The notes: generated from the letters alone by a model not told the origin. Counted from the stretch's first letter, positions 323-20,773 are shown. The stretch is DNA of 32,000 nucleotides from Paracoccus suum (GCF_003324675.1 NZ_CP030918.1:840001-872000); one strand, 5' to 3'. Numbers and translations are program-made.

Positions 323-327
323 AGAAC

Positions 328-3787: not shown

Positions 3788-4028
3788 GTCTTCTATATGC
3801 GGCGGACGCAGATAGACGTCAATGCCTAAATGCGTACGACGCAGATGGTCCGCGGGAGCCGCTGCCTTCCGCCCAAGCCGCCACTGCAGCTGTCGAGCGT
3901 CCCGCCCCCTGGGCCGCCCTCATCCGATCGGGGCTAAAGAGGAACCAAGCCATGACGTGGGGACCAAGGTGTCACTGGCGCGGACTGGATGCACTGATGG
4001 TTCGTCATGACAATCTGGATGCCGCCCA

Positions 4029-4705: not shown

Positions 4706-4714
4706 GGCGCGCTC

Positions 4715-4921
4715 TCAGATCGACTTGACGTCGGTGGTGGGCGAGAGCTGGCAGAAGATCTGCGTCACGTTGATCTTCACCTCGTCCGACGCGAAGCCGT
4801 TGTCGCGGAAGACGACGCGCAGGGGCTCGTGGCCCGCCAGCTCTTTCACCAGATCCTCGGTGATGCCGCAGTCGAAGCAGGCCGTCGGGTTTTTGCTTTT
4901 GAAATTCTTGTCAACACTTGG
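4715..4921 (-). pseudogene. mod: Type III DNA methyltransferase (Mod), C-terminal tail fragment only
   Basis: Hand translation of the minus strand gives ...NPTACFDCGITEDLVKELAGHEPLRVVFRDNGFASDEVKINVTQIFCQLSPTTDVKSI followed by a stop at 4715-4717, 9 nt before the res ATG. This is the canonical mod-res order and resembles Mod C-termini as I remember them. An in-frame stop at 4922-4924 closes the frame and no methyltransferase motifs lie upstream. Confidence 0.55.
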
Positions 4922-4926
4922 TCAAC
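4907..4926 (+). repeat. Direct repeat, left copy (cttgtcaacacttggtcaac)
   Basis: It matches 20208-20227 (cttgtcaacgcttggtcaag) at 18 of 20 positions. Both copies are preceded by a cgg(g)ttttt tract. The left copy sits exactly where the mod fragment breaks off. Confidence 0.5.
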
Positions 4927-4977
4927 GTTTACCGAGCCCCCCATCGACGGGCAACATGATCGCGCAGAACGCGGCAA

Positions 4978-5835
4978 TCATGCCGCCGCCCTGCATGCCG
5001 GTTCAAGCCAAGCCCAGATCTCCGCAGTGACCTCCGCGAGCGGCCGTCCCTCGAGAGCCGTGCCATCCGAGTAAGCCCGCCATTGCGTCGTCTTTGTCGG
5101 GTCGGTCGAGAACTCCTCCGACAGACCGACAGGGCAGGCGGCTGGAACAATCGTATCGCGTCGAGCGAAGGTTCCTCTGATCGCAGCCGCGAGGTCGTCC
5201 ATGTCGATGTTGACGGCCTTCGGCAGCGTCCCCAGATCATAGAGATCCTTCATCCGGCTGTTCGCCAAGCCCAGCGCCACCACGGCCTGAAACTTCTCGG
5301 CGATGACCGTTGCCGGTGAATAGGCGCGGATCGATGCGGCTGGAAAGTCGAGCAGGGAGCCGTACTCGATCTCGAATTGCGGATCGGGCAAGGCGTCGCC
5401 GAAGCCGAGGTCCACGGTGATCGGAATGCGCGTGTTACCCAAGCGGGCTTCGGTCCGGAGCCGCATCCCGCCATAGATCTGGTCTTCTCGAATGGCGACG
5501 GCCGTCAGGCTTTCAATGTCATAGACCAGCCCATCCTCGCCATCTATGGCGAGTATCTGGGAGAGGACAGTCTTCAGTTCCGCCTCCTCGTCCGAGCCGA
5601 ACGCCAAGAAGTCGATGTCCCGGGTAAAGCGGCCGGTGTCAGCCGTCCACAAGGTGACGAGCATGCCACCCTTCAAGACGAAGCGGTCGCGATATTCGGA
5701 GACCGACAGCCGGTACACCAGTCGTTCGAGGCCGAAGGCCACCAGCACCACATCGAACAGCTGACCTTCAGCACGGGCAAGGTTCAGCAGACGCTGACGC
5801 ACAGACGCCGCGATATCTTTCGGCTGCTTAGCCAT
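4978..5835 (-). CDS. abiEii: AbiEii/AbiGii-family nucleotidyltransferase toxin (DUF1814 type)
   Basis: 285 aa. The N-terminus SVRQRLLNLARAEGQLFDVVLVAFGLERLVYRLS...FVLKGGMLV...RFTRDIDF is typical of AbiEii toxins. It overlaps the upstream AbiEi gene by 8 nt. Confidence 0.9.
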   Translation of the reverse strand: MAKQPKDIAASVRQRLLNLARAEGQLFDVVLVAFGLERLVYRLSVSEYRDRFVLKGGMLVTLWTADTGRFTRDIDFLAFGSDEEAELKTVLSQILAIDGEDGLVYDIESLTAVAIREDQIYGGMRLRTEARLGNTRIPITVDLGFGDALPDPQFEIEYGSLLDFPAASIRAYSPATVIAEKFQAVVALGLANSRMKDLYDLGTLPKAVNIDMDDLAAAIRGTFARRDTIVPAACPVGLSEEFSTDPTKTTQWRAYSDGTALEGRPLAEVTAEIWAWLEPACRAAA

Positions 5836-6448
5836 TGGATGTCAGCGCCTCCAGATAGGGGCGCATCTGGTTCCACGCGCCGTTCTCGCGAGCGGCTGCA
5901 GCAAGCTGGCCTGCCGTTGCCTTCCTGGCGCTTAGCGCGGCCTTCATCGCTTCAATGGCAACCGACCGGTCTACAAGTTTCGGGTTCCGAAATGCGTCGG
6001 CAATCGTCTTGGCTATGGAGTAGACTCGGACCTCCACGTCCCCGCTGCGATGGATCTCGGTGCCATTGGTCAGGTAGGGCTCACGGAAGCGCACGATGCG
6101 GATGCGTGGATATTCGATCTTCGGTGCCCAGTCCTTGGCGCCGATGGCGATCCACACCCGGCGTGGAAGTTGGTCGGTCAGCTGATGAAAGGATAGCGCC
6201 GAGGTCAGGCAGATGACGGCCTTGGGTGCGAGTTTGGCGATCTCGATGAGCCCAGCATGAAGGTCGGGCTCGCTGTCGGGCAGCTGATACAGTCCCCGCC
6301 CGATCCGCACCACCACGCCATCTGCCACCGCCCTCGCGATGGTGGTTCCGCTCACGCCGATGGACGCCAGATCCCTTGAACGGGCTGGCGCATGAACTTC
6401 CATGTAGTCGATCATGTGGGCGCGCTGGCCCTGATCCGTCGCAAGCAT
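5828..6448 (-). CDS. abiEi: AbiEi-family antitoxin/transcriptional regulator (type IV TA)
   Basis: The N-terminal wHTH ...SRDLASIGVSGTTIARAVADGVVVRIGRGLYQLPD and a C-terminal antitoxin domain are present, immediately upstream of AbiEii. The start is uncertain: the ORF is open to 6556, with ATGs at 6448 and 6415. Confidence 0.85.
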   Translation of the reverse strand: MLATDQGQRAHMIDYMEVHAPARSRDLASIGVSGTTIARAVADGVVVRIGRGLYQLPDSEPDLHAGLIEIAKLAPKAVICLTSALSFHQLTDQLPRRVWIAIGAKDWAPKIEYPRIRIVRFREPYLTNGTEIHRSGDVEVRVYSIAKTIADAFRNPKLVDRSVAIEAMKAALSARKATAGQLAAAARENGAWNQMRPYLEALTSNG

Positions 6449-6449
6449 G

Positions 6450-6496
6450 GTTACAAAACCGCGGACAAAAATGCATCCTGTCCTAGGTTTTGTAAC
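6450..6496. promoter_or_regulatory. Perfect 11-bp inverted repeat (GTTACAAAACC, 25 bp spacer, GGTTTTGTAAC); candidate AbiEi operator
   Basis: The arms at 6450-6460 and 6486-6496 are exact reverse complements. They lie directly at or upstream of the candidate abiEi start. Confidence 0.55.
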
Positions 6497-6678
6497 ATTC
6501 CGCTCGGCTTCAGGCAACCTGCGCTGGTGCGCACCCCGCGGCGTCATCAGATTCAATCACCGCAGATTGTGCGGAGATTAGACCCACTATTCTCCGCCCG
6601 ACTGCTCCATAGGCGGATTTTGCCGTTCGATGACCCTTGGAACGGATGGACTACGGATCACGAGAAGCGGCCGAACCG

Positions 6679-6936
6679 TCAAATGCGGTTGGCCGGGATC
6701 ACCTCCGCGGCCGACGACGAATGGTAGGTGGGTTCTGGGGCGCTGACCCCAGCGACAAGTTCCACCTGCAGCTGCGTAAGGGGCGCGGCCTCTTGGCTTG
6801 CCATGTCGCGCCGGATCAGGTCTTCAACATAGGCGCTGACGGATTGATAGGGCCCTGGGTCGCTCACCATCAACGTCAGGACCTCGTGCAGCTCATCATC
6901 GATTTCCAGCGTCATCGTTCTGGGTTGGGCCGCCAT
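6679..6936 (-). CDS. ParD/CopG-like ribbon-helix-helix antitoxin, no cognate toxin gene adjacent
   Basis: MTLEIDDELHEVLTLMV..GPYQSVSAYVEDLIRRD resembles ParD-family antitoxins (RHH followed by a ...LIRRD helix and a C-terminal tail). The 120 nt downstream hold no intact ParE-like ORF. Confidence 0.5.
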   Translation of the reverse strand: MAAQPRTMTLEIDDELHEVLTLMVSDPGPYQSVSAYVEDLIRRDMASQEAAPLTQLQVELVAGVSAPEPTYHSSSAAEVIPANRI

Positions 6937-6997
6937 CCTTTTCTCCTTCCCGCCTGTCAGCTTGAGCCTCGGCGAGTGCGCGGCCGCCGTCCTGCCA

Positions 6998-7243
6998 TCA
7001 TTGGCATGTTCGGACTTGATCGCGCAACACGGCGTAATCGCTGAGCATCCGGACGATTACCGCGCCTTCCGGCATCGCCTCAACCTCGTCGCCCGCCCGC
7101 GCCTGCTCGGCGGCCGTGTAGTCAACCACGGGTGGGCAGGGAGCGCGGGTCTCAGAACCTGCCATCGCGCAGGCGCTCAGCCAGAGCATCGCGATCAGGA
7201 GGGCGGCGGGCGGCGGCGTCGAGCATCTGGCGGTGGATGGCAT
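6998..7243 (-). CDS. Small lipoprotein, Rz1/o-spanin-like
   Basis: Lipobox LWLSAC after a short signal peptide, then a Pro/Cys-rich mature part (APCPPVVDYTAAEQARAGDEVEAMPEGAVIVRMLSDYAVLRDQVRTC). The start lies inside the preceding gene in another frame. Confidence 0.45.
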   Translation of the reverse strand: MPSTARCSTPPPAALLIAMLWLSACAMAGSETRAPCPPVVDYTAAEQARAGDEVEAMPEGAVIVRMLSDYAVLRDQVRTCQ

Positions 7244-7397
7244 CGTTTCTCTCTAGGGCGTCAAGCCGTTCGGTGGCGCGCCCGGCGCGCTCGCCTGCGG
7301 GGCGTAGGTTTATGAGGAACAGCAGGATCGCTGCGGCGGTGAGGATCAGGCCCAGCGCCTTGCGCGCCGGGCCATGGGGGAGGAGCCAGCCGATCAC
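7152..7397 (-). CDS. Type II membrane protein, Rz/i-spanin-like (81 aa from the GTG at 7397)
   Basis: The N-terminal TM segment ALGLILTAAAILLFLI is followed by a charged helical tail ...ERLDALERNDAIHRQMLDAAARRPPDRDALAERLRDGRF. The GTG start overlaps the upstream stop (GTGA at 7394-7397). The 5' part of the 174-aa track ORF looks non-coding. Confidence 0.4.
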   Translation of the reverse strand: MIGWLLPHGPARKALGLILTAAAILLFLINLRPAGERAGRATERLDALERNDAIHRQMLDAAARRPPDRDALAERLRDGRF

Positions 7398-7603
7398 CGT
7401 TGGCCCCGTTTCCAGTCGTCGAGCCGGGCGTGGATGGTGACGACCGTGCCGATCAGCGCGATAGCGATCAGCACCCAGCGCAGCGTGTCGAGATAGGGTA
7501 CCAGCAGCTGGATCGTGGACTGGGTCTCGGCGAGGACGCCAATCACAGCATCCACCCCGGCCGCGCCGTCGGTGGCCGCCCCAGCCGCGCCGCCACCGCC
7601 CAA
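7394..7603 (-). CDS. Small single-TM protein, holin-like (TTG start)
   Basis: 69 aa with a Gly/Ala-rich N-terminus, one TM segment (LRWVLIAIALIGTVVTI) and a basic C-terminus (HARLDDWKRGQR). It is directly coupled to the two spanin-like genes. Confidence 0.35.
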   Translation of the reverse strand: MGGGGAAGAATDGAAGVDAVIGVLAETQSTIQLLVPYLDTLRWVLIAIALIGTVVTIHARLDDWKRGQR

Positions 7604-8318
7604 GGTGCGGCTTTCCGACAGGACTTCGCGCGCGGGTGGCCAGATCGTGATTCCGCAAGGCGCTGATCTGACTCAAGATTTCCGGCTCCGGGTCGCAAGG
7701 TGGCTTCCGCCTGGCTTCCCCGGTGAAAATGCCTGACGCTAGCGAACCGCCGCGCTACGGCCCCCGCATACGTTCTGGCCCGGGGAGGAACCAGAGGAGG
7801 GGGGAAAGCGTCCATGACGTGTCCGACCTGCCGACTCTTTGGGGGACTTGTGCAAAGCACCACCGAACTGTCACAGCAAAACAATGAAGCGGGCAGAGCC
7901 CGAATCCCTCGCGGCGATCCTGCAAAGCCGATTTTTCCCTACAAGCGGCGTGCGATGCTTGTTTTGCAAGGCCAAAGCTGTCCCGCTGTACCGGGAGCAA
8001 GTTTGCATGTCTGCACAAACAGCCCGGTCGCAGAGCACACAGAGGCCCATTTGATGCAACATGCAACTTGCCAAGGGAGGGGCTTGGAGCCCCGAGAAGC
8101 CTGACGGGTCTTCAATGTCGCCTTCGCTTAATGTCAGCTTGGTTGGAAGGGCGGCCTGCTGCGGGTGTCGGTTGGCAGGACGGTTCTCATGTGCGGCCTT
8201 CTGTCGTGTGGCTTTGGGCTTGGTCAGGCCCTCGTTCGGCACAAACTTAAGGACACATCGCAACGGGGAAACAGCATTGCGTCGGCTTGACCTCCGCGCG
8301 TAGGCTACTGTGGTGCGT

Positions 8319-8340
8319 GGCGGAAGAGCCTCCGCCTTTT
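8319..8340 (+). terminator. Candidate intrinsic terminator (GGCGGA-agagcc-TCCGCC-TTTT)
   Basis: A 6-bp GC stem (8319-8324 with 8331-8336) is followed by TTTT (8337-8340). It lies about 17 nt upstream of the GGAG Shine-Dalgarno of the AIPR gene. Confidence 0.35.
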
Positions 8341-8347
8341 CTGTGCC

Positions 8348-10480
8348 TTGCGCTGCGGAGCCCGTTTGAACCAGCTTGTCGAATTCAACCAAGACCTTGT
8401 TGCCGAGCTGCGGGAAGAGTGTGCGGAAACTGACCTGCCGCTCGAGGACGTCGCATTCGATCGGCTCTGCGAAACTCTGGAAGCCGAAGGCGAGATCGAG
8501 ACGTCCGACAGATGTGCTTATCGAGGGGCTGCATCCGGAAAGTCCCTTCGGATCGATGGTCATGGGGGTGACCCCAGAGAAACCGATGGCATCCTCAGCG
8601 TCATTGTCTGCGAAGTCTTCGACGACGAACAGCCGCCGACTTTGAACGCAGCCGACGCCAAAAAGCACTTTGGCCACTTGATCAATTTCGTCGCAGCCGT
8701 ACGGCGGCGGGAGTTTCGGGACCAACTGCACATCGAGTCACCCGAATTCGGCGTTGCCATGATGATCGCCGAGTCATGGTCATCCGTGACCAAAGTCAAA
8801 TTGATCCTTGTCACGAACGCGATCTACAGCGCCCGGACAGATGCCGTCGTTGCTGGAAGCATTTCCGACATCCCCGTGACCTATAACATCTGGGATTTGA
8901 CCCGTCTGCACAGGGTTGAAACCACGGGCTCCAAGGAAAAGATCGTCGTCAAGTTTGCCGAAGACTTCGGCGGAGGCCTTCCAGCCCTTCGAGCTTCTGG
9001 TCCGGAGTCAGAACTGCCATCCTATCTAGCTGTCATCCGTGGCAAACAGCTGGCTGACATTTATGACAAGTGGGGCGCGCGAATGCTGGAGTCAAACATC
9101 CGCAGTTTCATTCAGGCGCGCCGAAAGTCGGTCAACGAAGGGATCCGGGACACCATCAAGGGCGAACCCGAGATGTTCTTCAGCTACAACAACGGGCTGT
9201 CCGCGACCGCAGACGCCGTCGACATCGAGATGGACGGGGCCGGTGCCCACATCCTTTCGGCGAAAAACCTGCAGATCGTCAACGGTGGCCAGACGACCGC
9301 TTCGCTGCATGCAGCATTGAAGCACAGCCCTGAGAACCTGGACCGCGTCCATGTGCAGATCAAACTGACGGTGGTACCTTCCGAAAGTTCCGAGCAAGTC
9401 GTGCCGAACATCTCGAAGTACGCGAACAGCCAAAACAAGGTCAGTGTCGCCGATTTTTTCTCGAACCACCCATTCCACATGCGGATGGAGGGATACTCGC
9501 GCCGTGTTTCCGCGCCTCCAGCGCCGGGCATGAACAGGCAGACCAAATGGTTCTATGAAAGGGCGCGGGGACAGTACCAAGTGGAGCGGGCGAAGCTGGG
9601 AGGCGCCGATCGGAAGCGTTTCGATTCCGAACATCCGAAGGCCCAGCTCTTCGCCAAGACGGACCTTGCCAAGGTCGAACTTTCTTTCCGGATGAGACCG
9701 GACACCGTGAGCAAGGGGGCGCAGAAGAATTTCGCAGCCTTCGCATCGGAGATAGGAGAAGCGTGGGCGGCCAGTGACAGAAAGTATGACGAGACCTGGT
9801 TCAAACGCCTCATCGCCAAGGTGATCATATTCCGCGCCCTCGAGAAGGCTGTCCCACGACAGGAATGGTACCCGGGCGGATACAGGGCCAACATCGTAAC
9901 CTACGGTATTGCCAAGTTGGCCCATGACGTCGAAAAGGGCGGGAAGGTGCTGGATCTCGATCGGGTCTGGAATGACCAGTCCGTTCCGGAAGCGTTGATG
10001 AAAACTTTCCTCATTGCCTGCGAGGCCGCGGCCGACGTGATCACCACTACGGACAGTGGCATCCGCAATATCTCAGAATGGGCGAAGAAACAGGGATGCT
10101 GGTCTTCTGTCGCACGTGCCGAGGTTGCCTACGATGGCGGACTTGAGGACTTCCTCATAGAGCCTCAGGACGCCAGAGCGGCCGAACGTGACGGTCGCCG
10201 TGAAGAAGCGATGATTTCCGGGATTGAGGCACAGTCAAAGGTGATTGCGCTTGGCAGCGCCTTCTGGGGAAGGTTGCGTGAGTGGACCTCTGCTAGCCCT
10301 TCATTCTCAATGAAGAACGACGGCATCTTGAAGGCCTGCAGCCAGCAGGAGCGCCGCTTGCCGTCCGAGCGCCAATGCATTCTCGCCGTTGAAATCCTCG
10401 GACGTGCCCGCGAAGAGGGCTATGTCGACGATGAGGAGACACCCAGAATCAGGATATCCGGCAAAGTGCGGTCCCATTGA
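8348..10480 (+). CDS. AIPR-family (abortive infection phage resistance) protein
   Basis: About 700 aa. The core ...MLESNIRSFIQARRKSVNEGIRDTIKGEPEMFFSYNNGLSATADAV...LQIVNGGQTTASL is the AIPR signature as I know it. There is no ATG start. TTG at 8348 or, better, TTG at 8366 (GGAG 5 nt upstream) are the candidates. Confidence 0.88.
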   Translation: MRCGARLNQLVEFNQDLVAELREECAETDLPLEDVAFDRLCETLEAEGEIETSDRCAYRGAASGKSLRIDGHGGDPRETDGILSVIVCEVFDDEQPPTLNAADAKKHFGHLINFVAAVRRREFRDQLHIESPEFGVAMMIAESWSSVTKVKLILVTNAIYSARTDAVVAGSISDIPVTYNIWDLTRLHRVETTGSKEKIVVKFAEDFGGGLPALRASGPESELPSYLAVIRGKQLADIYDKWGARMLESNIRSFIQARRKSVNEGIRDTIKGEPEMFFSYNNGLSATADAVDIEMDGAGAHILSAKNLQIVNGGQTTASLHAALKHSPENLDRVHVQIKLTVVPSESSEQVVPNISKYANSQNKVSVADFFSNHPFHMRMEGYSRRVSAPPAPGMNRQTKWFYERARGQYQVERAKLGGADRKRFDSEHPKAQLFAKTDLAKVELSFRMRPDTVSKGAQKNFAAFASEIGEAWAASDRKYDETWFKRLIAKVIIFRALEKAVPRQEWYPGGYRANIVTYGIAKLAHDVEKGGKVLDLDRVWNDQSVPEALMKTFLIACEAAADVITTTDSGIRNISEWAKKQGCWSSVARAEVAYDGGLEDFLIEPQDARAAERDGRREEAMISGIEAQSKVIALGSAFWGRLREWTSASPSFSMKNDGILKACSQQERRLPSERQCILAVEILGRAREEGYVDDEETPRIRISGKVRSH

Positions 10481-10611
10481 GGTCGGGCTGCAGCGGCACC
10501 GTTGTGTGAATCACGCCGTTGCCTTCGCGTGCACAAAGGGCGACGCGCTCACACCCGTCCCCGGCCGCCCTTTGAACCTTCGCTCGACTATTACAGCGGT
10601 GGAAGCTTCAT

Positions 10612-11052
10612 TCAGTGGACCCGCCGCCAACCGGTCGTCAGCCTGATCCTGACGGGGGCGTCATCCTCTGAGGCGTCGGAGCCGCCGCCTATCGGGATCA
10701 CCCTGATTTTGTAACGCGCCGCCCCGTCCGCCTTCGAAATCTCGAAGGTATCGCGCGCGTTGGCCATTTCCTCCCTGAGGAACTTGGTCAGATAGGTGAT
10801 CCGATACTCGTTTCGTGTGCCTTTTGGCGCATGCATTCGGTTGTTGTAGTATACGAAGCGAAGGCGCAGAATCTGACCACTAGGCGTTTCGCAGTCGATC
10901 CATGCCGAAGGGTTCAAGGTTGCCGGATCAAGCTTGGGCAAGAAGGCAAGAAGCTCGCCATCACCTTTCGGCACCAGAATGCCCCCCATGTGGCCACCTG
11001 TCGTTCCGACGTCATTGGCACTGAGTGTCTTGATGAAGGTTTTGATCGTCAT
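10612..11052 (-). CDS. Stand-alone EcoRII N-terminal-like (B3/DNA-binding pseudobarrel) domain protein (146 aa)
   Basis: FIKTLSANDVGTTGGHMGGILVPK...RFVYYNN....GTRNEYRITYL parallels EcoRII YIKRLSANDTGATGGHQVGLYIP...AIYYNS...GKTRNEKRIT. The real start is the ATG at 11052, in an ATGA overlap with the SNF2 stop. The upstream part of the 177-aa track ORF is Arg/Pro junk. Confidence 0.75.
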   Translation of the reverse strand: MTIKTFIKTLSANDVGTTGGHMGGILVPKGDGELLAFLPKLDPATLNPSAWIDCETPSGQILRLRFVYYNNRMHAPKGTRNEYRITYLTKFLREEMANARDTFEISKADGAARYKIRVIPIGGGSDASEDDAPVRIRLTTGWRRVH

Positions 11053-12869
11053 GGCTTTACCGGGCTGATGGCGAGGGCGCGCCTGATGTCCTGTGCGTCC
11101 CGACTGGAAACCGGGACGGTTTCGTTGGCAAGGTCGCTCTTCCAAGCGGAGCGTTCGATCATCACCTCCTCGACCGTGTCCTTATAGAAGAGGCGGTAGA
11201 CCGTGACTGGTTCGGTTTGGCCACGTCGATGCGCCCTCGCGCTCGCCTGAGCTTCGAGGGCAGGGTTCCAGACGGGGGTGAAATGGATCACGACGGTTGC
11301 TGCAGTGATGTTCAGGCCCGCCCCTGCCGCCTTCGGATTCAGGATCAGGCATGCGGCACCATCGTGGGCTGAGAAATCATCGATGATGGTCTGGCGGTCC
11401 TCCTGCGGGGTCGATCCGTTGATCGCTCCCCAATACGTTTCGGCAAAGTCTTTGCAGGCAGTCCGGATCAAGTCACCGATCCGATTGAACAGGGCAAAGA
11501 CGATGACCTTCCGGCCATTCGCAAATGCCTCCCGAAGGAGTTCGACCGTTCGTTCGAGCTTCGGCGTAAGCAGAGGTAGGTCCTCACGGGTAACGATCTT
11601 GGCGTCGTCCCAATCGACCAGCGCCGCATCCGGAGTCCTGAGCCAAGGATGCGCACAGACCAGCTGAAGCTGCAGGGTCGCGACGAGGGGGCCCGCGACC
11701 GGATACTTTTCCAGCGTAGCCTCGCGGACGTTGTCGTAATGCCGGGCCAGACCATCATCGAGTTCCAACGGCAGATCGATGTCGATGCGATCCGGAAGAT
11801 CGGCGGCGACATCACGCACTCGCCTTTTCAGGATGATTGGATCGGTCAAGCCGCCCAGCGCCTGTCCGGCCTCAAGCGTGTCGGGGAACGCGACTTCGAA
11901 GACGGTTTTGTCCCCGAGCATGCCCGGGATTGCGAAATCGGCCAACGACCACAGATCCATCAGGGTATTCTCGACCGGGGTGCCGGTCATCGGTATCGAC
12001 TTGCGGCGAGGGATCGTCACAATTGCCTGCCGACGGTTGGAGTGGGGGTTCTTGATGGCCTGAGCCTCGTCGCAGATCACCCAAGCCCATTCAAAGGACG
12101 AGAAGATCGAGATGTCGTTCACCATCGTCTCGTAGGTGGTGATCACTACAGATGCGACCTGTAGGTCACGATAGATTCCGGCACGATGGGCTCCCCTGTG
12201 AACCATCAGCGAGAGGCTTGGCGCGAACTTGCCGAACTCGCGCACCCAGTTTGCGATGAGGCTGGTCGGACAAACGATCAGGGCCGGTGCGGCGTTCTCC
12301 GGTGGATCCATAAGCAGGAGTGCGATGATCTGAAGCGTCTTGCCGAGACCCATCTCGTCCGCAAGGATCAAACCGCCAGTCCTATTGACCGTTTCCCACA
12401 TCCATCGGACGCCCCGTGCCTGGTAGGGGAAGAGGTCGGCGTGTAGGCCGGGGATGTCGATCTTGGGCGGCAATTCCTCGGCGGTGATCTTGCCCGAGTG
12501 CAAGAGATCGGGTGCGGCCTCGATTTCGAGGCCCTCGGGTGGTGTTCGCAGCAGCCTGATCGCCGTGGCGTACGAAATGTCGTCCGGGGCTTCGTCACCA
12601 AGGCATTTTGCGACCAAGCCCGGAGCGTCCTTGGGTAAGGGGCGTAGGATTGCGCCGTCCGCAATCCAAGCATGCGAAATCGACGGCGCCTCGATCAGTC
12701 GAACTTCCCCACGAACCATTCGCTTGCCGCCCAGCGCCACGGACATCTTCCCGGATACCCGGGAGAGGATCGCAACCGGTTCAACAACCCGCTCAGAGAC
12801 GGAAAATCCTTCAGGAACCTTTGCGAGCAGCGCGTCGAAATCTCGAGGCAGGGCAGCAAGTTTGCTCAT
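11049..12869 (-). CDS. SNF2-family (SF2) helicase/translocase
   Basis: LFPYQARGVRWMW, LADEMGLGKTLQ (motif I), DEAQAIKN (II), MTGTPVEN (III) and LNITAATVVIHFTPVWNPALEAQASARAHRRGQ (V/VI) are all present. Confidence 0.92.
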   Translation of the reverse strand: MSKLAALPRDFDALLAKVPEGFSVSERVVEPVAILSRVSGKMSVALGGKRMVRGEVRLIEAPSISHAWIADGAILRPLPKDAPGLVAKCLGDEAPDDISYATAIRLLRTPPEGLEIEAAPDLLHSGKITAEELPPKIDIPGLHADLFPYQARGVRWMWETVNRTGGLILADEMGLGKTLQIIALLLMDPPENAAPALIVCPTSLIANWVREFGKFAPSLSLMVHRGAHRAGIYRDLQVASVVITTYETMVNDISIFSSFEWAWVICDEAQAIKNPHSNRRQAIVTIPRRKSIPMTGTPVENTLMDLWSLADFAIPGMLGDKTVFEVAFPDTLEAGQALGGLTDPIILKRRVRDVAADLPDRIDIDLPLELDDGLARHYDNVREATLEKYPVAGPLVATLQLQLVCAHPWLRTPDAALVDWDDAKIVTREDLPLLTPKLERTVELLREAFANGRKVIVFALFNRIGDLIRTACKDFAETYWGAINGSTPQEDRQTIIDDFSAHDGAACLILNPKAAGAGLNITAATVVIHFTPVWNPALEAQASARAHRRGQTEPVTVYRLFYKDTVEEVMIERSAWKSDLANETVPVSSRDAQDIRRALAISPVKP

Positions 12870-13702
12870 CGGACGGCCGCCTCGTCCACGTGCGGTGACA
12901 TGAGCGCCCGCAATTCCGAAATGGAGTAGGGTATCGGGCGTCTCGTATGCACGGCGCGGTGGCAGTTGGGACAGAGCGGTGCCAGATCGATCGCCGGATT
13001 GTATGCGCGGGGCACAGCCAGAAGGGACAAGGCCTCGAGATGGTGGACTTCAATGATGCTCCCGGCCTCGCCGTATGCCGACCTCGGCTCGATGCCGCAG
13101 CATGCGCATTTCTCGCCGTGCAGCCGGATACAGAGCAGGCGGTTTCGAGGGTTCCGTTCGCGTCGCCGGATTGTCGAAACTCGAATCGCGCCCTCATGAG
13201 CGTGCGCACCGTCTTTTTCCTCCTCCTCGATAACGTCATAGCCTATAAGTTCCGCCATTGCGGCCATCAACGGCACGATCACGTCCCGGCATACCTTGGC
13301 GACTGCCTCGTCCTGATCGTCTGGCAACCCCCGGGCTGTTGCTGTGATCTTGAAAGCTCCGGAATCCACAGTCCAATCATCCCGGCCTTGGCCAAAAAGT
13401 TGGAGATCCACTGCTGGACTGATCGACGCCACCAAGGCGCGTGCCAACCCGACGTCCTCTGCGTCTGCGGCCTGTATCTGGCGGACGATCGCTCCCGCAA
13501 ACTTCCCGAAGCCGAGCGCTACCCGATATCCCCGGATCCCGTAGGGACGCAGCTCTGCAATCGGGCCGTGGCGCTCGTCCAGATCGGCGAACCAGAGGCG
13601 CAGGCCGGTCCTGGTGCCGCTTTGGTCGACCGCTATACCGATCGCGGCGCCGGTTCCCGCCTCCAGCTCCCTTTGGATGATGTCCTGCCGATCGGAGATC
13701 AT
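12866..13702 (-). CDS. HNH endonuclease with an unassigned ~170-aa N-terminal domain
   Basis: The C-terminus RRRERNPRNRLLCIRLHGEKCACCGIEP...IIEVHHLEAL...NPAIDLAPLCPNCHRAVH is a canonical HNH/zinc-finger nuclease. It has an ATGA overlap with SNF2 and a 1-nt spacer to the GHKL stop. Confidence 0.85.
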   Translation of the reverse strand: MISDRQDIIQRELEAGTGAAIGIAVDQSGTRTGLRLWFADLDERHGPIAELRPYGIRGYRVALGFGKFAGAIVRQIQAADAEDVGLARALVASISPAVDLQLFGQGRDDWTVDSGAFKITATARGLPDDQDEAVAKVCRDVIVPLMAAMAELIGYDVIEEEEKDGAHAHEGAIRVSTIRRRERNPRNRLLCIRLHGEKCACCGIEPRSAYGEAGSIIEVHHLEALSLLAVPRAYNPAIDLAPLCPNCHRAVHTRRPIPYSISELRALMSPHVDEAAVR

Positions 13703-13703
13703 C

Positions 13704-15332
13704 TTATTCGTCGTCGTCCTCGGTCAGTTCCGCGGGTTCAGGATCCGGCATGTACCGCAGCAGCTTGCGGAGGTTGGCCGAAATCTCTTCGCGGATATCC
13801 TCGAAGACGGGTTCGAGCTCGGGATCGGTGTTGTTCTGCTCGGCCATTGCGAAAGCGTAGAGCAGGAGGTCCATCCCCTCGACCGCGTAGCCGTTGGCGG
13901 CGGCACGCTGATAGATCTTCTGATAGAAGTCATGGTGCTTGTTGAGCTGAACGCCCGGCACATGGTCCGCGCTTCCCGCGCTGCGGTAAGCGGGCTCCCA
14001 GAGATGGCCATTTGTGATCGTTGTAACCGCTTCGACGTGAATGCTGTCAGGGCTGACGAAATTCTGGACTGGCGCCTTGATCCTGATCTTCGGGCCGCGG
14101 TTGTTGCTGATTTCGGCAGTTTGGGTGCGTACGTCCGCAGCATTCACTTGGGGTTTCGTTGTGTTTGGCGTGCCCGCGATATTCTTGTTCGCGCTGCTGT
14201 GGTCGACGGTCTTCTTTTGGTTGGCGTCGTCTCGGCTTTCGCGGCGATAGCGAGCACCAGCTTCGCGATAGACCGGTTGAAGCAGTTTGCGCAGGCCGTC
14301 CTCAAGATCCGGATGGAACAGGATCCGTGACTTCTTCACATCGATTCGGAATGCCTCGTCCAACTGGTGGCCGAAGTCGAACTCGATTCTGAGCAGCGAG
14401 GTGTGCGGTTCAGGCGCTCCGAACACATCCATCCAGCCGCCGTCTTGGATCAGGCGGCCCTCGCGATAGACATAGAAGCCTTGCGCCCTGTTCGAGATCT
14501 TCGCGAACTCGGCCTCTTCTTCTTTGCCCATGTCACGGCGGTGCGGAAGGATCCACGCCTTCATTTCGGCAACTTCTTCGCTCCCGTCGAAGAGTTCGAC
14601 GACCACCTTTTGTTTGTTCGGGGCAAGTACTTGCTCGGACCGTCCGGGATAGAACGGGTTCCATGGTTTCACCGGAGTTCCGTTGATCCGGATCACTACG
14701 TTCCGTTCCCGGCTGTCATTTTCATCAAGGAATCTATGGAAGACGAGGGAGAGGTGCTTGCTAAGGGCCTCGGACATCCGCTTGACAGCGGCCTGTTCCT
14801 TTGTGCCTGGCGTGTATTCCTTCGAAAGCAACCGGTCGCAGTTTTCCCAAATGACAAGCGTACCCGTCGGACCGCAGTACTCGTCGAACATCTCGTTCTG
14901 ATCCGCCGTTACCGGCTCAGCCAACATTTCCCACACGTTACGCTGTTCGACGTGCTCTAGGTCCCATGTAAGCTTAGCCAAGGGTTGGTCCTCAGACCGC
15001 CGAGAGATCACGCTGTAGCGCTTGCAAACCGAGCTGGAGGCGGTCTTGAGGCCCAAGCCGAATTTTCCAAGGCTCTTTGCGTCGGGGCGCCTGTCCGCAC
15101 CGTACCGCATGGCGTTCCGGACTTGCTCTTGGTTCATCCCGTGACCATCGTCGCCGAAATAGACGACCTTCCGTCCGTCATGCAGGAGCTGGATTTCGAT
15201 GTTGATGTTCTCTGCTCCTGCCGCGATCGAGTTGTCGATGATGTCCGCAGCTGCGGTCCTGACGTTGTAACCGGTGTCGCGCAGGCCATAAATCAGCCGC
15301 GAGGCGTTCGGGTCGTTGATAAGGTCGCTCAT
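13704..15332 (-). CDS. MORC-like GHKL (HATPase_c_3-type) ATPase
   Basis: Bergerat-fold motifs are readable: AADIIDNSIAAGA (N box), DDGHGM (G1), GKFGLGLK (G2). About 300 aa of uncharacterised C-terminus follow. It has an ATGA overlap with vsr. Confidence 0.88.
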   Translation of the reverse strand: MSDLINDPNASRLIYGLRDTGYNVRTAAADIIDNSIAAGAENINIEIQLLHDGRKVVYFGDDGHGMNQEQVRNAMRYGADRRPDAKSLGKFGLGLKTASSSVCKRYSVISRRSEDQPLAKLTWDLEHVEQRNVWEMLAEPVTADQNEMFDEYCGPTGTLVIWENCDRLLSKEYTPGTKEQAAVKRMSEALSKHLSLVFHRFLDENDSRERNVVIRINGTPVKPWNPFYPGRSEQVLAPNKQKVVVELFDGSEEVAEMKAWILPHRRDMGKEEEAEFAKISNRAQGFYVYREGRLIQDGGWMDVFGAPEPHTSLLRIEFDFGHQLDEAFRIDVKKSRILFHPDLEDGLRKLLQPVYREAGARYRRESRDDANQKKTVDHSSANKNIAGTPNTTKPQVNAADVRTQTAEISNNRGPKIRIKAPVQNFVSPDSIHVEAVTTITNGHLWEPAYRSAGSADHVPGVQLNKHHDFYQKIYQRAAANGYAVEGMDLLLYAFAMAEQNNTDPELEPVFEDIREEISANLRKLLRYMPDPEPAELTEDDDE

Positions 15333-15865
15333 CTTCGTGTTTCCTGCTCGCCGGATGAAATTCCGGACCTCGTGCGCCTGTTGGTCGACAGGCCATCCGA
15401 TGACAATTCTGCATTTGTTTCAATGCCCTGCAGCCATGCGGCGATAATACTGATCAAATTGTCCACCTGAAAGGACCGCGTCGCACATTCCCAGACGACA
15501 AGAACCCGCCAGCCGTAGCCCAGCAGAGCCTCGATTGCGCGTGTGTCCCGCTCCCGGTTGGCTTCGATCTTTGCGGACCAGAATTCTGGCCGGGTCTTGG
15601 GAATACGAAAATGCTTGCAGTCAGCGTGACCATGCCAAAAGCAACCGTTCACGAAGATAGCGCACTTGTGCTTCCGCATGACGATGTCCGGACAGCCCGG
15701 GAGGGAACGGACGTGCAACCTGAACCGGTAGCCGATGGCGTGGAGAGCCTTGCGCAGGACCAGTTCCGGCTTGGTATCCGCCGAACGGACGCGCGCCATC
15801 ATCTGTGATCTGGTAAGGGGCGCCTTCTTCTCAGCCAACACGTTCCCTTCGCGACCGGAGGGCAA
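15329..15865 (-). CDS. vsr: Very-short-patch repair endonuclease
   Basis: [24 protein letters not shown]...[26 protein letters not shown]...[16 protein letters not shown]...[11 protein letters not shown] matches E. coli Vsr almost motif for motif. The start is non-ATG (TTG 15865, GTG 15841 or TTG 15838) and overlaps the end of the methyltransferase gene. Confidence 0.92.
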
Positions 15866-16931
15866 CCATGTTAGTCAACCATGGAGCCATCGCTTCGGCG
15901 ATCGCAACCGAAACAGGCGCCGCGACGGCGTTGCCGAACTGCCGATATGCTTGGGTGTCACTTACCGGGATCTTCCAGGGATCGTTGGAGCCGGGACGGT
16001 CGAAACCCATAAGGCGCGCGCATTCCCGCGGGGTCAGGCGGCGCGGGTTCTCTCCAGGCTGCTTGACCAAGATTTCAGACCCATCCTTATGATACCGAGC
16101 GCTGAGTGTGCGGGCCACGTTTTCGGGGCCGACCAGCCCGAAACCGAAGCCATTGCCTGCCCTGCGATGCTTCTCGGCATACCGCTGGAGGTACGACCAG
16201 AGGCCATCAGTAAGCGTGTAACGGTCGTTGACCTTGCCGAAGCTACCGGTCGTGTAGCGCCCGTCTGCGGCCTCCGACCCGTCCTCGGGGTGGAGGATCG
16301 ATGCGAGGGTAGGGTTGGGCCCCGGCGGAACGAACACATCATCGAAGGAGAAGGTCGTCTTGTAGTCCCTGCGGAACCCAGAAATGAAAATTCGCTCACG
16401 ATGCTGCGGCACCCAAGAACGGGCATCTATCACGCGGTAATCAACCTCGTACCCGAGTTCGTCCAAGGCATGCAGGATGACCCGCATCGTGTTGCCCTTG
16501 TCATGGCTCAACAGATTCTTGACGTTCTCGAGCAAGAAGGCCCGGGGCTGGTGATGGCGCAGGATCCGGACGACGTCGAAGAACAGGGTCCCCTGGGTCT
16601 CGTCCGCGAACCCATGAGCTCGACCGAGCGAGTTCTTCTTGCTGACGCCAGCCAAAGAGAACGGCTGGCAGGGAAATCCGGCCAGAAGCAGATCATGATC
16701 AGGAATGTCTGACGCGGCAACCTGCGTGATGTCACCAGCGATTTCATGGTCGCTTCCAAAGTTAGCGCGATAGGTCTCCTGAGAGTACTTGTTCATCTCG
16801 CAGGTGAAGACGCATTGTCCACCAATTGCGTCGAAGCCACGCCGGAGGCCCCCGATTCCCGCGAACAAATCGATGAACTTGAAGGGTGCTTCGGGGTGTT
16901 CCAAGAATGTTTCCTGCACGCTTGTCGCCAC
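15831..16931 (-). CDS. DNA (cytosine-5)-methyltransferase
   Basis: [10 protein letters not shown] (motif I), [11 protein letters not shown] (IV), FLLENVKNL (VI), QHRERIF (VIII) and [11 protein letters not shown] (X) are present. The GTG start at 16931 has AGGA 4 nt upstream. Target specificity cannot be read from the sequence. Confidence 0.95.
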
Positions 16932-17611
16932 AATATCCTGGGCCGTGGGATCAAGCCCTCTGCTGATGCTATGCTAGGCAGCCTTCGCTGTCGATGGTTT
17001 GAGCGTAGCCGCCGGTCCGCGATGATGATGTCCTATCATTGGTCCATTAACAGATCGGTTTGAAGACAGCCGCGTCGTCGGTTCGGAGTTGCCCGACCCA
17101 CCGAGACAGGCCCGGGTCCGGGTCGAACAACAGATCGTGTGGCAAAGCCGTCATGCCCACGGCCTGATTTTCGGCATTGGAGCCGTCACTTCGACCTCCC
17201 GCAGCATCCCGCCCACGAGCGGCCCCTCGCGGATTCAGCCCAGCGCTTGCCACCAGTCGTCATAGCCGCGCCGGGCCGCTTCGATCTGCTGCGGATGGGG
17301 GGAGAACGTGACTGGGCAGGCCAGGATGTCGAAGATCTTCCACGTGGTACGCGCGCCCACACCGACACAGGCGTAGATCCGCGCCACCATCAAGCCGGGC
17401 CACGAGGCGGGGACTGGAATAAAGGCGGAAGGTGGAACTGGGGCTGGCAGTGGCGTTCCGGGCAGAACAAACGAGTAGTTGGTGCAAGATACACGTCACT
17501 GATCCAATGCCTTTGTGGGAAACGCTGAAACTGAACACGGATAACGGTATGAGCGCACATCAAGCCTGCGGTGGCGCCCTACACTTGTGTTGAGGCTTTG
17601 CACCCCCTCGG

Positions 17612-18949
17612 ATGCGCGCTATGAACAACACCAAGGCATATCTGATCAGGACGCGTCTCTTCATGTTTTCACGACTGCGGCTAGAAAACTTCAAGGCTTG
17701 GTTGGACCCCGAGGACATTACTTTGCGTCCACTTACGATGCTCCTCGGCACCAACTCATCCGGAAAGTCGTCTCTTATCCAGAGCCTGCTATTACTCAAG
17801 CAGACCGCGCGTTCGCCCGACCGGACTGTTCATCTCAATCTTGGTGGAGATGAGCTAAACGATCTTTTCAATTTTGGGTCCTTCGAAGACGTCCTGAACC
17901 ATAGCGCTGAGTCTCCGCGTCTATTTTCGATAGAATTCGACTTCGATAATCGTGGCGCAAGCAGAATTCATAAGGGCAGTTTTGGGTGCTCTTACGGCCA
18001 GACTTCGTCTGGCAGCGTCGCTGTTCAGGCTCTCACTCTCAAAGCTGAGGGACGTCAGTTCAAAGCCATTCGCCGAGAGAAAGGCGCTTTCTCGATCCTC
18101 GTAGATGATGAGCAACTGCCTCGGGCAAAGGGCCGCAATTACGCGCCTGAGCGCTCGATTGCCTTTTCGGCTGATGCGATAGCTGTACTCGATAAAGAAG
18201 GACAACTGCTTGAGGACCTCAGCCTAGCAATCCGGCAGGAACTAGATCGCACCATCTATCTTGGGCCGTTGCGTCGTAAGCCGGAACGCGATTACCCTTG
18301 GAATAAAAGCAAGCCAGGCGACGTGGGCAGCGATGGACGTGGCGCAGTAGACGCCCTCTTGGCAAGTACCCTATTGCGCGGCGATGAACAGAATTACGTT
18401 GTTGATGGCGTCTCTCGCTGGCTGCGTCATATGGGAGTTGCAGACAAGCTTGAGGTCAGACAGCAGGGGCGCTCAAATCGCTATGAATTAATTGTGCATC
18501 GTGAAGGCGTTGCATGCAATCTGCGGGATGTGGGTATCGGCGTATCACAGGTATTGCCGGTTTTGGTTGTGTCCTACTTTGCCCCTAAGGGTAGTACGAT
18601 CTTACTTGAAGAACCCGAGATTCACCTGCATCCGCTTGCTCAATCAGTTTTGGCTGAGCTTTTCGTCGACGTCAGTATGGAGCGCGGGGTTCAGTTTATT
18701 GTTGAAACGCATTCTGAGCATCTCTTCAGACGCATGCAGACACTAATTGCCAAGGAAAACACTTCGGCGACTGATGTGGCAATGTATTTCGTGAAGCGAA
18801 ACGGGCGTTCTGCGAAACTATGTACCCTCGAAATTGATGATTTTGGTCGTGTGAAAAACTGGCCTGACGGCTTTTTTGGCGACGCGCTCGGAGAGACTCG
18901 TGAACAAGCACGACTCATGTTTGAGCGGCAGAAGACACTTCAGCAATGA
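17612..18949 (+). CDS. AAA/ABC-type ATPase (AAA_15/21-like with a DUF3696-like C-terminus)
   Basis: LRLENFKAW...LLGTNSSGKSSL (Walker A), ILLEEPEIHLHP (Walker B), VETHSEHLF (H-loop) and the C-terminal ...DDFGRVKNWPDGFFGD. The true start may be the ATG at 17663 (MFSRLRLENFKAW). Confidence 0.85.
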   Translation: MRAMNNTKAYLIRTRLFMFSRLRLENFKAWLDPEDITLRPLTMLLGTNSSGKSSLIQSLLLLKQTARSPDRTVHLNLGGDELNDLFNFGSFEDVLNHSAESPRLFSIEFDFDNRGASRIHKGSFGCSYGQTSSGSVAVQALTLKAEGRQFKAIRREKGAFSILVDDEQLPRAKGRNYAPERSIAFSADAIAVLDKEGQLLEDLSLAIRQELDRTIYLGPLRRKPERDYPWNKSKPGDVGSDGRGAVDALLASTLLRGDEQNYVVDGVSRWLRHMGVADKLEVRQQGRSNRYELIVHREGVACNLRDVGIGVSQVLPVLVVSYFAPKGSTILLEEPEIHLHPLAQSVLAELFVDVSMERGVQFIVETHSEHLFRRMQTLIAKENTSATDVAMYFVKRNGRSAKLCTLEIDDFGRVKNWPDGFFGDALGETREQARLMFERQKTLQQ

Positions 18950-19476
18950 AAGAGCGCTATGTCGTTGATACCAACGTCTTGATTGCAGCAAGTGCAGCTG
19001 ACCCAGTGCACCCATCTGACATTGCCGCAACGCCGACTGATCCGGTATTGCGCCAGGCTGTTTGGGCTTGGTTGGACGAGTTTGAACGGGGAAACTGTCG
19101 TCTTGTGTTGGACTCAGAAAATCGCATTTGGAATGAGTACAACAATAAGCTGAGACATACTGATTTCGGCATTCAGGTCGTAATATCAAAGTGGAGCAAG
19201 TGCGCGGTCGACAACGTTGCGGTGGATTATGACGAGCACGGACATGGCACTTTGCCGGCAATGCTGGAGCCCGTCATCCATGACCTAGCAGATCGGAAGA
19301 TCGTTGCAGCTGCGCTGGCATCCTATGTAGATTTTGGTGAAGGGTGTATAGCGTTTGCTGGTGACACCGATTGGCATGACTGGGAGGAGGCCCTTCTGGC
19401 ACAGAACGTTGACCTCGAACCGATTATCGAGGCTTGGTCGCGCGCGAAGCATATAGAGAAACAAGAGAGAGTGTAG
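18946..19476 (+). CDS. PIN-like domain nuclease (176 aa)
   Basis: YVVDTNVLIAAS (first acidic residue), LVLDSENRIWNEY, DLADRKIVAAAL and the GDTDW acidic positions fit a PIN fold. It has an ATGA overlap with the ATPase stop. Confidence 0.65.
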   Translation: MKERYVVDTNVLIAASAADPVHPSDIAATPTDPVLRQAVWAWLDEFERGNCRLVLDSENRIWNEYNNKLRHTDFGIQVVISKWSKCAVDNVAVDYDEHGHGTLPAMLEPVIHDLADRKIVAAALASYVDFGEGCIAFAGDTDWHDWEEALLAQNVDLEPIIEAWSRAKHIEKQERV

Positions 19477-19484
19477 GAAGCCTG

Positions 19485-20198
19485 ATGCAAAGCTTCTTTC
19501 GCTTTCCTTCCACGCCTCATCTTGCTTGGCTGAGTCGCCTTGCTGTTCCACGCGAGGATAAAGTGCTTTGTCGCGAAGATGCCGCAAGTCTGCTATCGGG
19601 CGAAGTGGTTGTCGAGGAGAAGCTTGATGGTGCCAACATTGGACTATCTCTAGCCGAAGACGGTTCTCTCCAGGTTCAAAATCGCGGGCAATATTTGATC
19701 GCGCCATTTGTAGGGCAATTCGTAAACGTGCCCGAATGGCTTTCGCAGCATGGTGAGGATATCCGTGATCGTCTTGATGGATCGCTTATAATCTTTGGTG
19801 AGTGGTGTGCTGCACGGCACTCAATTAGTTATGACCGCCTGCCTGATTGGTTTGTAATGTTCGATGTCTATGATCGGGCGATTGCACGTTTCTGGAGTAC
19901 TGATCGACGAAACGCTCTCGCTTCTGCGGCCAACCTAGTGACTGTGCCAACCTTGCTGCGAGGGAAAACAAATTTGGCTCAGTTGGAAGAGATAATGGAT
20001 AAACGGCTTAGCCGATATGCGCTTGAGCCGATGGAAGGTTTAGTTGTTCGTCGAGAGAGCGCTCTGTGGTGTGAGAGGCGCGCCAAGCTTGTACGTCCAG
20101 ACTTCACTCAGGAGATTACGGAGCATTGGAGTCGGCACAGTATCAAGTGGAATCGAGTAGATTGGTCGGTCCGTTCGGACCCTAACTCTGCCACGTAA
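19485..20198 (+). CDS. ATP-dependent RNA ligase family protein (Rnl2/RNA_ligase-type nucleotidyltransferase)
   Basis: FPSTPHLAWLS N-terminus, EEKLDGANIG (motif I KxDG), IIFGEW (III), FVMFDVYD (IV) and EGLVVRRE...AKLVRPDF (V). The ATG at 19485 has AGGAAG 4 nt upstream and lies 8 nt after the PIN stop. The track ORF start at 19434 overlaps the PIN gene. Confidence 0.85.
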   Translation: MQSFFRFPSTPHLAWLSRLAVPREDKVLCREDAASLLSGEVVVEEKLDGANIGLSLAEDGSLQVQNRGQYLIAPFVGQFVNVPEWLSQHGEDIRDRLDGSLIIFGEWCAARHSISYDRLPDWFVMFDVYDRAIARFWSTDRRNALASAANLVTVPTLLRGKTNLAQLEEIMDKRLSRYALEPMEGLVVRRESALWCERRAKLVRPDFTQEITEHWSRHSIKWNRVDWSVRSDPNSAT

Positions 20199-20207
20199 TC
20201 GGTTTTT

Positions 20208-20227
20208 CTTGTCAACGCTTGGTCAAG
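20208..20227 (+). repeat. Direct repeat, right copy (cttgtcaacgcttggtcaag)
   Basis: It matches 4907-4926 at 18 of 20 positions and lies 10 nt after the RNA ligase stop. Confidence 0.5.
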
Positions 20228-20356
20228 CCGCGAATGCGTTTCTGAGCGCACGTCGATCCTTCCAAAGCCAGTGAGAAACGCCGAGCGAACGCAAATGAAT
20301 CTGCCATCTCAAAGGCTTGTCGGCCAAGTTGCTGAAATCAAAATAAAAAAATCAAC

Positions 20357-20469
20357 GGGTTCGGCTCATAACCTGAAGGTTGCAGTCACAGGGGCTCGTT
20401 GACTCGATGGAGGAGCTTTGGACAACTGGCAGGTCGTTCGGTTCAGGTCTAATCCTGTCCCCGCAACCA
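20357..20469 (+). pseudogene. Degenerate tRNA-fMet 3' fragments (probable att remnant), not a functional tRNA
   Basis: 20357-20385 (gggttcggCTCATAAcctgaaggttgcag) resembles the initiator-tRNA anticodon arm and variable loop (E. coli GGGCTCATAACCCGAAGGTCGTCGG). 20431-20469 (aggtcgttcggttcaggtctaatcctgtccccgcaacca) resembles AGGTCGTCGGTTCAAATCCGGCCCCCGCAACCA, with a 1-nt and a 5-nt insertion. No D-arm or 5' acceptor strand is present upstream, where the sequence is AT-rich (aaataaaaaaatc). Confidence 0.55.
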
Positions 20470-20482
20470 GAACGATCACGCA

Positions 20483-20507
20483 AAACGCCGCCCCCAGGGC
20501 GGCGTTT
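20483..20507. terminator. Bidirectional-type intrinsic terminator hairpin (AAACGCCGCCC-cca-GGGCGGCGTTT)
   Basis: An 11-bp perfect stem with an 8-bp GC core has an A-tract on one side and a T-tract on the other. It starts 14 nt after the CCA of the tRNA-like fragment. Confidence 0.55.
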
Positions 20508-20773
20508 GCCGTTCAAGGGGACGGGAACGCAGGCAATAGCCGGGCCGATCGTAAAAGCGCGGGCAAACGCGAGCGGCCAAGCGACCGACGGATGGGCGGC
20601 AGTGCGATAACTGTAAAATTACTCAAAATTTGGGCGCAGACACCCAGAATCAAGACGGGTCCTGCCACGCGGCCCCGTTGGGCCGTCGCCCACCCTTTTC
20701 CGGAATACCCTGAGAAGAGACCCCAGACGCACGTCTCCCTACGACACGCCATCACCTGTCCGAGGCCACCGCC

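Follow-up and report, generated by a model that had tools for sequence, protein, structure and literature searches.

The stretch of DNA analysed here, referred to as the window, comprises 32,000 nucleotides of Paracoccus suum and corresponds to positions 840001–872000 of the genome, within a single 3.25-Mb contig. Sequence comparison identifies window positions 20206–20575 as the right-hand junction of an island. On the plus strand, the junction is composed of one arm (P arm) of a tyrosine-integrase element that we refer to as B-type (20206–20362), a first tRNA-like segment (piece 1, 20363–20392), a spacer (20393–20427), a second tRNA-like segment (piece 2, 20428–20469) and 106 nt of displaced native flank of an rRNA operon (20470–20575). 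To the left lies defence cargo comprising AbiEi/AbiEii, AIPR, a Dcm-Vsr-GHKL-HNH-SNF2 operon and an ATPase/PIN/RNA-ligase cassette, and to the right of the terminator contained in the flank are genes for a CobW-type GTPase and an amidohydrolase. The G+C content climbs at the junction from 0.51–0.58 on the left to 0.65–0.68 on the right, and the island as a whole has values of 0.51–0.62 compared with 0.65–0.68 outside. The ATPase/PIN/RNA-ligase cassette (18000–20000) has a G+C content of 0.51–0.52, below that of the rest of the island, and a positive GC skew. The original prediction, which was made from the sequence of the window alone, had placed a switch from defence to housekeeping genes at this position, and the switch is evident in both gene content and base composition.

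The two pieces were compared with the initiator tRNA gene of the same genome rather than that of E. coli (the genome under study is designated G000 and the compared genomes have other G numbers). In piece 1, positions 20363–20380 match positions 31–48 of the tRNA-fMet gene without a mismatch, including CTCATAA of the anticodon loop at 20365–20371. A 6-nt insert follows (20379–20384), after which the match resumes at 20385–20392 with the 5′ strand of the T-stem. Piece 2 ends in 19 nt (20451–20469) that have the same letters as the 3′ end of the intact tRNA-fMet gene, forming a 19-nt direct repeat. The hairpin at 20483–20507 is the operon terminator, with a folding energy of −27.4 kcal/mol (z=−3.9) and none of 200 shuffled sequences as stable. 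ARAGORN detected no tRNA anywhere in the window, and Rfam detected none in the window at the gathering score and none on 20250–20560 at E≤10. Sub-threshold Rfam matches on the terminator (rnk leader and P9) were dismissed as hairpin look-alikes. Within the island region, the core and 3′-end motifs are present only at the intact tRNA gene and at the far junction, and chance is excluded as the origin of the tRNA-like pieces. The original prediction had quoted the letters correctly, with piece 2 (given as 20431–20469) reading as described, and it was also right in finding no 5′ half of a tRNA and in recognizing a genuine terminator.

The genome contains two rRNA operons, both with the alphaproteobacterial order 16S, tRNA-Ile, tRNA-Ala, 23S, 5S and tRNA-fMet, as well as a permuted tmRNA. 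The intact tRNA-fMet gene that closes rRNA operon 2 is located at genome positions 837603–837679, 2.3 kb to the left of the window. That such a gene and attL would be found there, beyond the recombinase genes, had been set beforehand as a test, and this expectation was borne out. Among the 40 nearest species genomes, the flanking genes are only ∼70% identical and there is no synteny at operon 2, and operon 1 of the same genome was therefore taken as a proxy for the empty site. The match between the two operons runs to the CCA end of the tRNA gene (837679) and restarts at 860444–860595 (from window position 20444), so that the native flank of operon 2 now lies 22,790 bp away, beginning at window position 20470. 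Since these 106 nt match the sequence beyond the operon-1 tRNA-fMet gene without a difference, operon 1 serves as a paralogous empty site, and the insertion in operon 2 amounts to 22,790 bp. The locus is a composite defence island of 22,790 bp (genome 837670–860459) in the tRNA-fMet gene of rRNA operon 2, and it displays the features of a tDNA island: an intact tRNA gene with a 3′ repeat, a displaced flank, a recombinase gene by the att site, cargo and a deviant G+C content. The repeat and the displaced flank confirm that the junction is both a distal att site and the boundary between island and core genome, as had been proposed, with the native downstream sequence following the scar.

The left end of the island carries three recombinase genes on the minus strand, in which neighbouring genes overlap by 4 nt and which form one operon (genome 837639–842031). 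The first gene (window 328–2031) encodes a 567-aa tyrosine recombinase with a Pfam Phage_integrase domain at residues 386–544, and the middle gene encodes a 347-aa tyrosine recombinase, also with a Phage_integrase domain, of which the 3′ part is in the window (1–331) and the whole is at L001:8289–9332. Both retain HxxR and the C-terminal tyrosine. The last gene encodes a 551-aa large serine recombinase (LSR; genome 837639–839291, L001:6637–8292), lies wholly to the left of the window and adjoins the intact tRNA gene. The LSR contains Resolvase (PF00239), Recombinase (PF07508) and Zn-ribbon (PF13408) domains, matches the phrog_95 integrase family over residues 1–500 and has the N-terminal catalytic motif YARYSTDLQ. 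Its open reading frame (ORF) is open and its full-length identity to homologues is 60–77%, and it looks functional. A phage collection contained no close relative of the LSR, the best matches being 31–39% identical.

The LSR reading frame continues past the junction onto the strand complementary to the tRNA gene, where its stop codon is the TCA of the anticodon loop. The frame spans its own attachment site (L001:6637–6680), with the last 10 codons and the stop contributed by the tRNA complement. In the integrated state the protein has 551 residues compared with 571 in the predicted excised circle, in which the stop would be at 20366–20368, within the CTCATAA of piece 1, and the predicted excision also alters the tail of the LSR in three other elements of the family. 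The possibility that piece 1 has been kept as the supplier of an LSR stop codon was considered and rejected, as the excised-form reading frames of other family elements stop at unrelated sites.

To examine the attachment site, attP was rebuilt by joining the left side of attR (20428–20459) to the right side of attL (L001:6671–6700), which gave a dyad of ∼54 bp centred on TC, a dinucleotide at 20458–20459 that corresponds to positions 66–67 of the tRNA gene and is the putative crossover site. The element-side half-site (P, 20428–20457) is the reverse complement of the sequence to the right of the intact tRNA gene. Its conserved outer motif (20436–20447) has as its reverse complement the 12 nt to the right of CCA at attL. 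At positions 10–24 outward from the centre, the two halves of attP agree at 14 of 15 positions, and this pair is the sole best among 3.9 million inverted 15-mer pairs drawn from the 2 kb inside each island end, and is exactly in register. The consensus half-sites, derived from 14 P and 68 P′ sequences, have ACCGAAC in common at positions 16–22. The 8 nt after CCA at attL were considered as a further copy of the tandem motif of the B-type arms but this was rejected because the spacing differs.

The same att architecture and register are found in elements from Mesorhizobium (97 kb), Albidovulum (26 kb) and Roseovarius, where the far junctions were located by pattern. In these and in the relative G006, the identity between attL and attR begins exactly at the central dinucleotide and runs to CCA, and its length is 12–19 nt. 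In two of the three elements from other genera the inner half-site is not tRNA-like, and the outer motif is the same. Of 148 genomes of the genus, nine carried the signature of the P half-site, compared with one match for a reversed control pattern. An LSR was present in four of five genomes with the signature, but LSRs are common in the genus anyway and their co-occurrence with the signature does not discriminate. Piece 1 adjoins the P half-site only in the genome under study and in G006, and seven other LSR junctions of the genus are without it. The spacer between the pieces is partly alignable with the shorter spacer of G006; the remaining LSR junctions in the genus lack it.

Serine integrases have a zinc-ribbon motif that is 5 bp nearer the centre in attB than in attP (PMC3783163). 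Here, TGAACC is found at positions 13–18 in both halves of attP and at positions 8–13 in the tRNA side of attB, a 5-bp shift in the tRNA-side half that fits this rule and would account for the ‘5-nt insertion’ in piece 2 that had previously been taken as a difference from the tRNA. No such motif is present in the tRNA-distal half of attB (B′), which differs between genomes, and the att model is therefore incomplete for the right half of attB. Taken with the dyad, piece 2 is predicted to be the attR of the LSR, consisting of the P half-site, TC and the tRNA 3′ end, and not a decayed tRNA copy.

The position of the LSR gene end was scored in 80 related loci from the Rhodobacterales, Mesorhizobium and others (45–77% identity). 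The LSR gene ends at an intact tRNA-fMet gene in 46 of the 80, at the 3′-half scar of another island in ∼17–19 and at an attP-like junction in ∼11. In all of these settings the tail of the LSR is specified by sequence that straddles the site, and it would differ after excision. A pair of tyrosine recombinase genes is located upstream of the LSR gene in fixed order and spacing in most of these loci. A sizeable minority (including L085–L092 and L109–L115) contain an LSR without the tyrosine pair at the same tRNA position and with the same P′ motif, and since these LSR-only elements use the same site, we assign integration to the LSR, which would be the catalyst of the present junction. A fragment encoding the C-terminal region of an LSR (residues 443–551, 74% identical) is located by another tRNA-fMet gene in G006 (G006:C1:108769–109095) and marks an LSR element that has decayed at a second rRNA operon. 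In Nioella, Mameliella and Ruegeria marina (L118, L119 and L060), a second copy of the last 10 nt is found ∼96 nt after the intact tRNA-fMet gene, joined to an LSR P′ site and an LSR gene. This arrangement looks like a miniature element with a terminator between the two att halves.

Piece 1 has a different affiliation. In the B-type elements, a tandem motif is located ∼150 nt to the left of the core, followed by a CAAAGGCTT box and a core in the anticodon loop, and the other arm contains a comparable box, a terminator and a further copy of the tandem motif. The P arm at 20206–20362 contains the tandem motif at 20206–20226 and the CAAAGGCTT box at 20310–20318, and extends as far as the anticodon-stem position. 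The P-arm region (20208–20385, 178 nt) is 82, 75 and 69% identical to sequences in G214, G014 and G253, respectively, each of which is directly to the left of a clean 45–48-nt tRNA-fMet 3′-half scar. Clean full-length counterparts of piece 1 with the same placement relative to the P arm are present in seven other genomes. A remnant of the opposite (P′) arm was found at 4903–4948 on the plus strand, where the tandem arm-type motif (4905–4925) and a conserved 3′ extension are preceded by half a terminator. This remnant is identical at 43 of 46 positions to a sequence in G014 (L016:424–470) that lies ∼62 nt downstream of an intact tRNA-fMet gene; the tRNA 3′ copy expected to the left of the remnant has been deleted. 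The 21-nt tandem motif occurs only twice in the genome, at these two positions.

The B-type integrase (∼420 aa, Arm-DNA-bind_3) is located 1–9 kb inside the scar in G014, G016, G088, G253 and G286. It is absent from the island studied here, and the best match elsewhere in the same genome is only 25–39% identical. What can be recognized of the B-type element in the island are its two arms, by homology, and the core at 20363–20380, with the scar cut off after tRNA position ∼56 and the left core deleted. Some 15.5 kb of the element (4903–20392) persist within the LSR-bounded island. Since the integrase, the left core and the scar's 3′ part have been lost, the remnant is no longer mobile through a system of its own. 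In the arms of the tyrosine-integrase elements (L030–L036, L014 and L016, as well as window 4905–4925 and 20206–20226), variants of a tandem 8-mer ending in TCAAC are found 11 nt apart on both arms, as is a CAAAGGCTT-like box, and the half-site sequence differs between element lineages. The tandem 8-mers probably serve as arm-type sites for the integrase, and the box as a site for an accessory protein. Fragments of a type III restriction system (an N-terminal ResIII/DEAD piece) at 3920–4902 end exactly where the P′ remnant begins, and an inner junction between the two elements in this region has probably been lost by deletion.

The tRNA-fMet genes at the ends of rRNA operons are island hotspots in the genus (G012, G014 and G016; L016–L029). 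Clean 3′-half scars are found 43–82 kb from the intact gene in these three genomes, with two tandem scars in G012 and G016, and the tRNA gene and its scar carry different T-stem variants. The left-end recombinases described above were not found in the tRNA-fMet islands of G006, G012, G014 and G016, where the genes by the intact tRNA are cargo; the scar-side ends in G014 and G006 contain metal-efflux and insertion sequence genes.

It is likely that the present junction is the attR of the LSR and that piece 1 is left over from an older tyrosine-integrase element nested in the island. Of the alternatives, the one closest to the original prediction takes both pieces to be degenerate 3′ copies of tRNA-fMet from one or two tyrosine-integrase integrations, their differences having arisen by decay in unselected DNA. 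Tyrosine-element scars in the form of clean 3′ halves are indeed frequent in relatives, piece 1 truly is such a remnant and two tyrosine recombinase genes are located at the left end of the island. Decay, however, does not explain why the non-tRNA letters of piece 2 are kept in nine genomes of the genus and form an inverted repeat of the sequence past CCA at attL, or why other genera hold non-tRNA-like sequence at this place with the same outer motif, and the adjoining 106-nt flank is without any decay. We regard this explanation as unlikely. The attribution to a tyrosine integrase made in the original prediction consequently holds for piece 1, but not for piece 2 or for the enzyme of the present junction, and the suggestion that two events are recorded was correct in spirit, in that two element systems are represented, but not in that both left tRNA 3′ pieces.

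A related proposal would have the junction made by the tyrosine pair (567 and 347 aa), with the serine recombinase serving another role such as resolution or inversion. The pair is kept with the LSR in most loci, its genes have the 4-nt overlap and both proteins have the catalytic residues noted above. The LSR-only elements at the same tRNA position argue against this, as do the short dyad, the 2-nt centre and the 12–19 nt of identity, which constitute the serine-integrase pattern (PMC3783163), and the vicinity of the junction yielded no arm-type repeats for the pair; we consider it very unlikely that the pair was responsible. Finally, since the two pieces jointly span tRNA positions 31–77 and an AGGT(C) segment is present in each, they could be halves of one 48-nt 3′-half scar that was split in place by an insertion of ∼60 nt, in which case the island would be a simple one-integrase element. 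This is extremely improbable given that G006 has the same split at an unrelated flank, that the LSR half-site stands without piece 1 in seven other genomes of the genus and that the P′ remnant at 4903–4948 reveals a second element inside the island.

We therefore return to an LSR-mediated junction that encloses the remains of a B-type element. The LSR would join its ∼54-bp dyad attP with an attB composed of the T arm and acceptor 3′ strand of the tRNA gene, with strand exchange predicted at the TC of tRNA gene positions 66–67. Integration would restore the tRNA at attL with the last 10 nt supplied from the element's copy, and leave behind, as piece 2, an attR in which the P half-site and TC are followed by the 3′ end of the native tRNA gene and then by the operon's original terminator. 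Piece 1, together with the adjoining 157 nt on its left, represents the P arm and anticodon-loop core of the Arm-DNA-bind_3 tyrosine-integrase family, which also targets tRNA-fMet. The island may still be capable of excision, to judge from two LSR hybrid sites that look intact and an LSR reading frame that is open and retains the catalytic serine motif; no directionality factor was identified.

How the two elements came to be adjacent is suggested by G006, where the same arrangement of piece 1, spacer and piece 2 adjoins another flank, a B-type P′ arm in its own right, that has no match in the genome under study. The structure is therefore carried along with an element end and did not arise at this site. 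That a B-type end is found 35 nt away from the LSR half-site requires the assumption of at least one deletion. An LSR element located within a B-type scar could have been deleted except for its P end, or alternatively a B-type element could have inserted close to the right-hand terminus of an LSR element, with a later deletion at the left junction. The order of events may have been either, as both routes fit the history.

On a more speculative note, LSR elements may capture the remains of stacked tyrosine-integrase islands as cargo, and the Tyr-Tyr-Ser operon may be an undescribed three-recombinase module in which the tyrosine pair serves in cargo capture, exchange or resolution and not in chromosomal integration. 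We put this forward tentatively, as a possibility that has the balance of probability against it. If the capture idea were correct, the occurrence of piece 1, spacer and piece 2 in two species at unrelated flanks would be a trace of re-mobilization. A literature search on the Tyr-Tyr-Ser trio found no description of it, which does not prove that there is none.

The analysis sets exact bounds for a defence island with several candidate anti-phage systems. It also indicates that an island edge can bear a ‘degenerate tRNA fragment’ that is in fact a recombinase half-site and not the product of decay, which alters how island edges are read and how att sites are predicted. The attP/attB architecture documented here in silico is that of a widespread alphaproteobacterial serine-integrase family directed to a universally conserved tRNA 3′ end, and such integrases are of practical interest as tools for genome engineering. 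Moreover, two unrelated recombinase systems compete and stack at the tRNA-fMet genes that end rRNA operons.

LSR islands at tRNA-Met and at the ssrA gene of Dehalococcoides have already been published and nothing here is conceptually new, the only parts that we did not find described being the in silico dissection of the att sites and the Tyr-Tyr-Ser operon. In the classification of Williams (2002), tDNA islands of P4-like tyrosine integrases reportedly include tandem arrays. The B-type remnant resembles such islands in the crossover of piece 1 at the anticodon loop with an identity block that extends to the CCA end, as well as in its long arms, repeated arm-type sites and an integrase family with an Arm-DNA-binding domain. 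It differs from them in that the arms and part of the core are all that is left here, the integrase and the left core being gone.

A close parallel for the LSR is provided by the ssrA islands of Dehalococcoides, in which the serine recombinase DsiB is associated with insertion at the T-loop/3′ region, a repeat of ∼20 bp and tandem arrays (PMC3146451). Common to both are an LSR that inserts in the T-loop/3′ region of a tRNA or tRNA-like gene with a short direct repeat, a conserved non-target motif directly upstream of each repeat, a recombinase gene that overlaps attL at its 3′ end with its stop inside the target gene, and remnants that lack an integrase. In contrast to the DsiB islands, the target here is tRNA-fMet at the ends of rRNA operons in Alphaproteobacteria, the partners of the LSR are two tyrosine recombinases and not the small serine recombinase DsiA, and the cargo is anti-phage defence and not reductive dehalogenases. 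The nickel islands of Mesorhizobium of the C089B type are described as having a serine recombinase, the tRNA-Met 3′ end as target and a 14-bp repeat (PMC10990125). They share the use of a serine recombinase with the island studied here, and the LSR at Mesorhizobium locus L085, which has no tyrosine pair, is 62% identical and occupies the same tRNA position. The C089B-type islands differ from the present one in their size of 53–172 kb and their metal-tolerance and mobilization genes (PMC10990125).

Within Paracoccus itself, phage vB_PamS_Pami6 (phiPam-6) has a serine recombinase module and tRNA-Met(CAT) as its site, and tRNA-Met(CAT) is also the commonest target of Paracoccus tyrosine-integrase prophages (PMC3925955, PMC6536676). 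This two-system hotspot is matched at the present locus, although phiPam-6 is a functional siphovirus and what is found here is a defence island. The LSR has the same set of domains as the A118/LI, phiC31 and Bxb1 integrases (PMC3783163), and its predicted sites resemble theirs in an attP that is an imperfect inverted repeat of ∼50 bp with a non-palindromic central dinucleotide and in a zinc-ribbon motif that is displaced by 5 bp when attP is compared with the left half of attB. Those integrases, however, have mostly protein-coding or intergenic targets and genes that do not span attP, whereas the target here is the 3′ end of a tRNA gene, which would be rebuilt upon integration.
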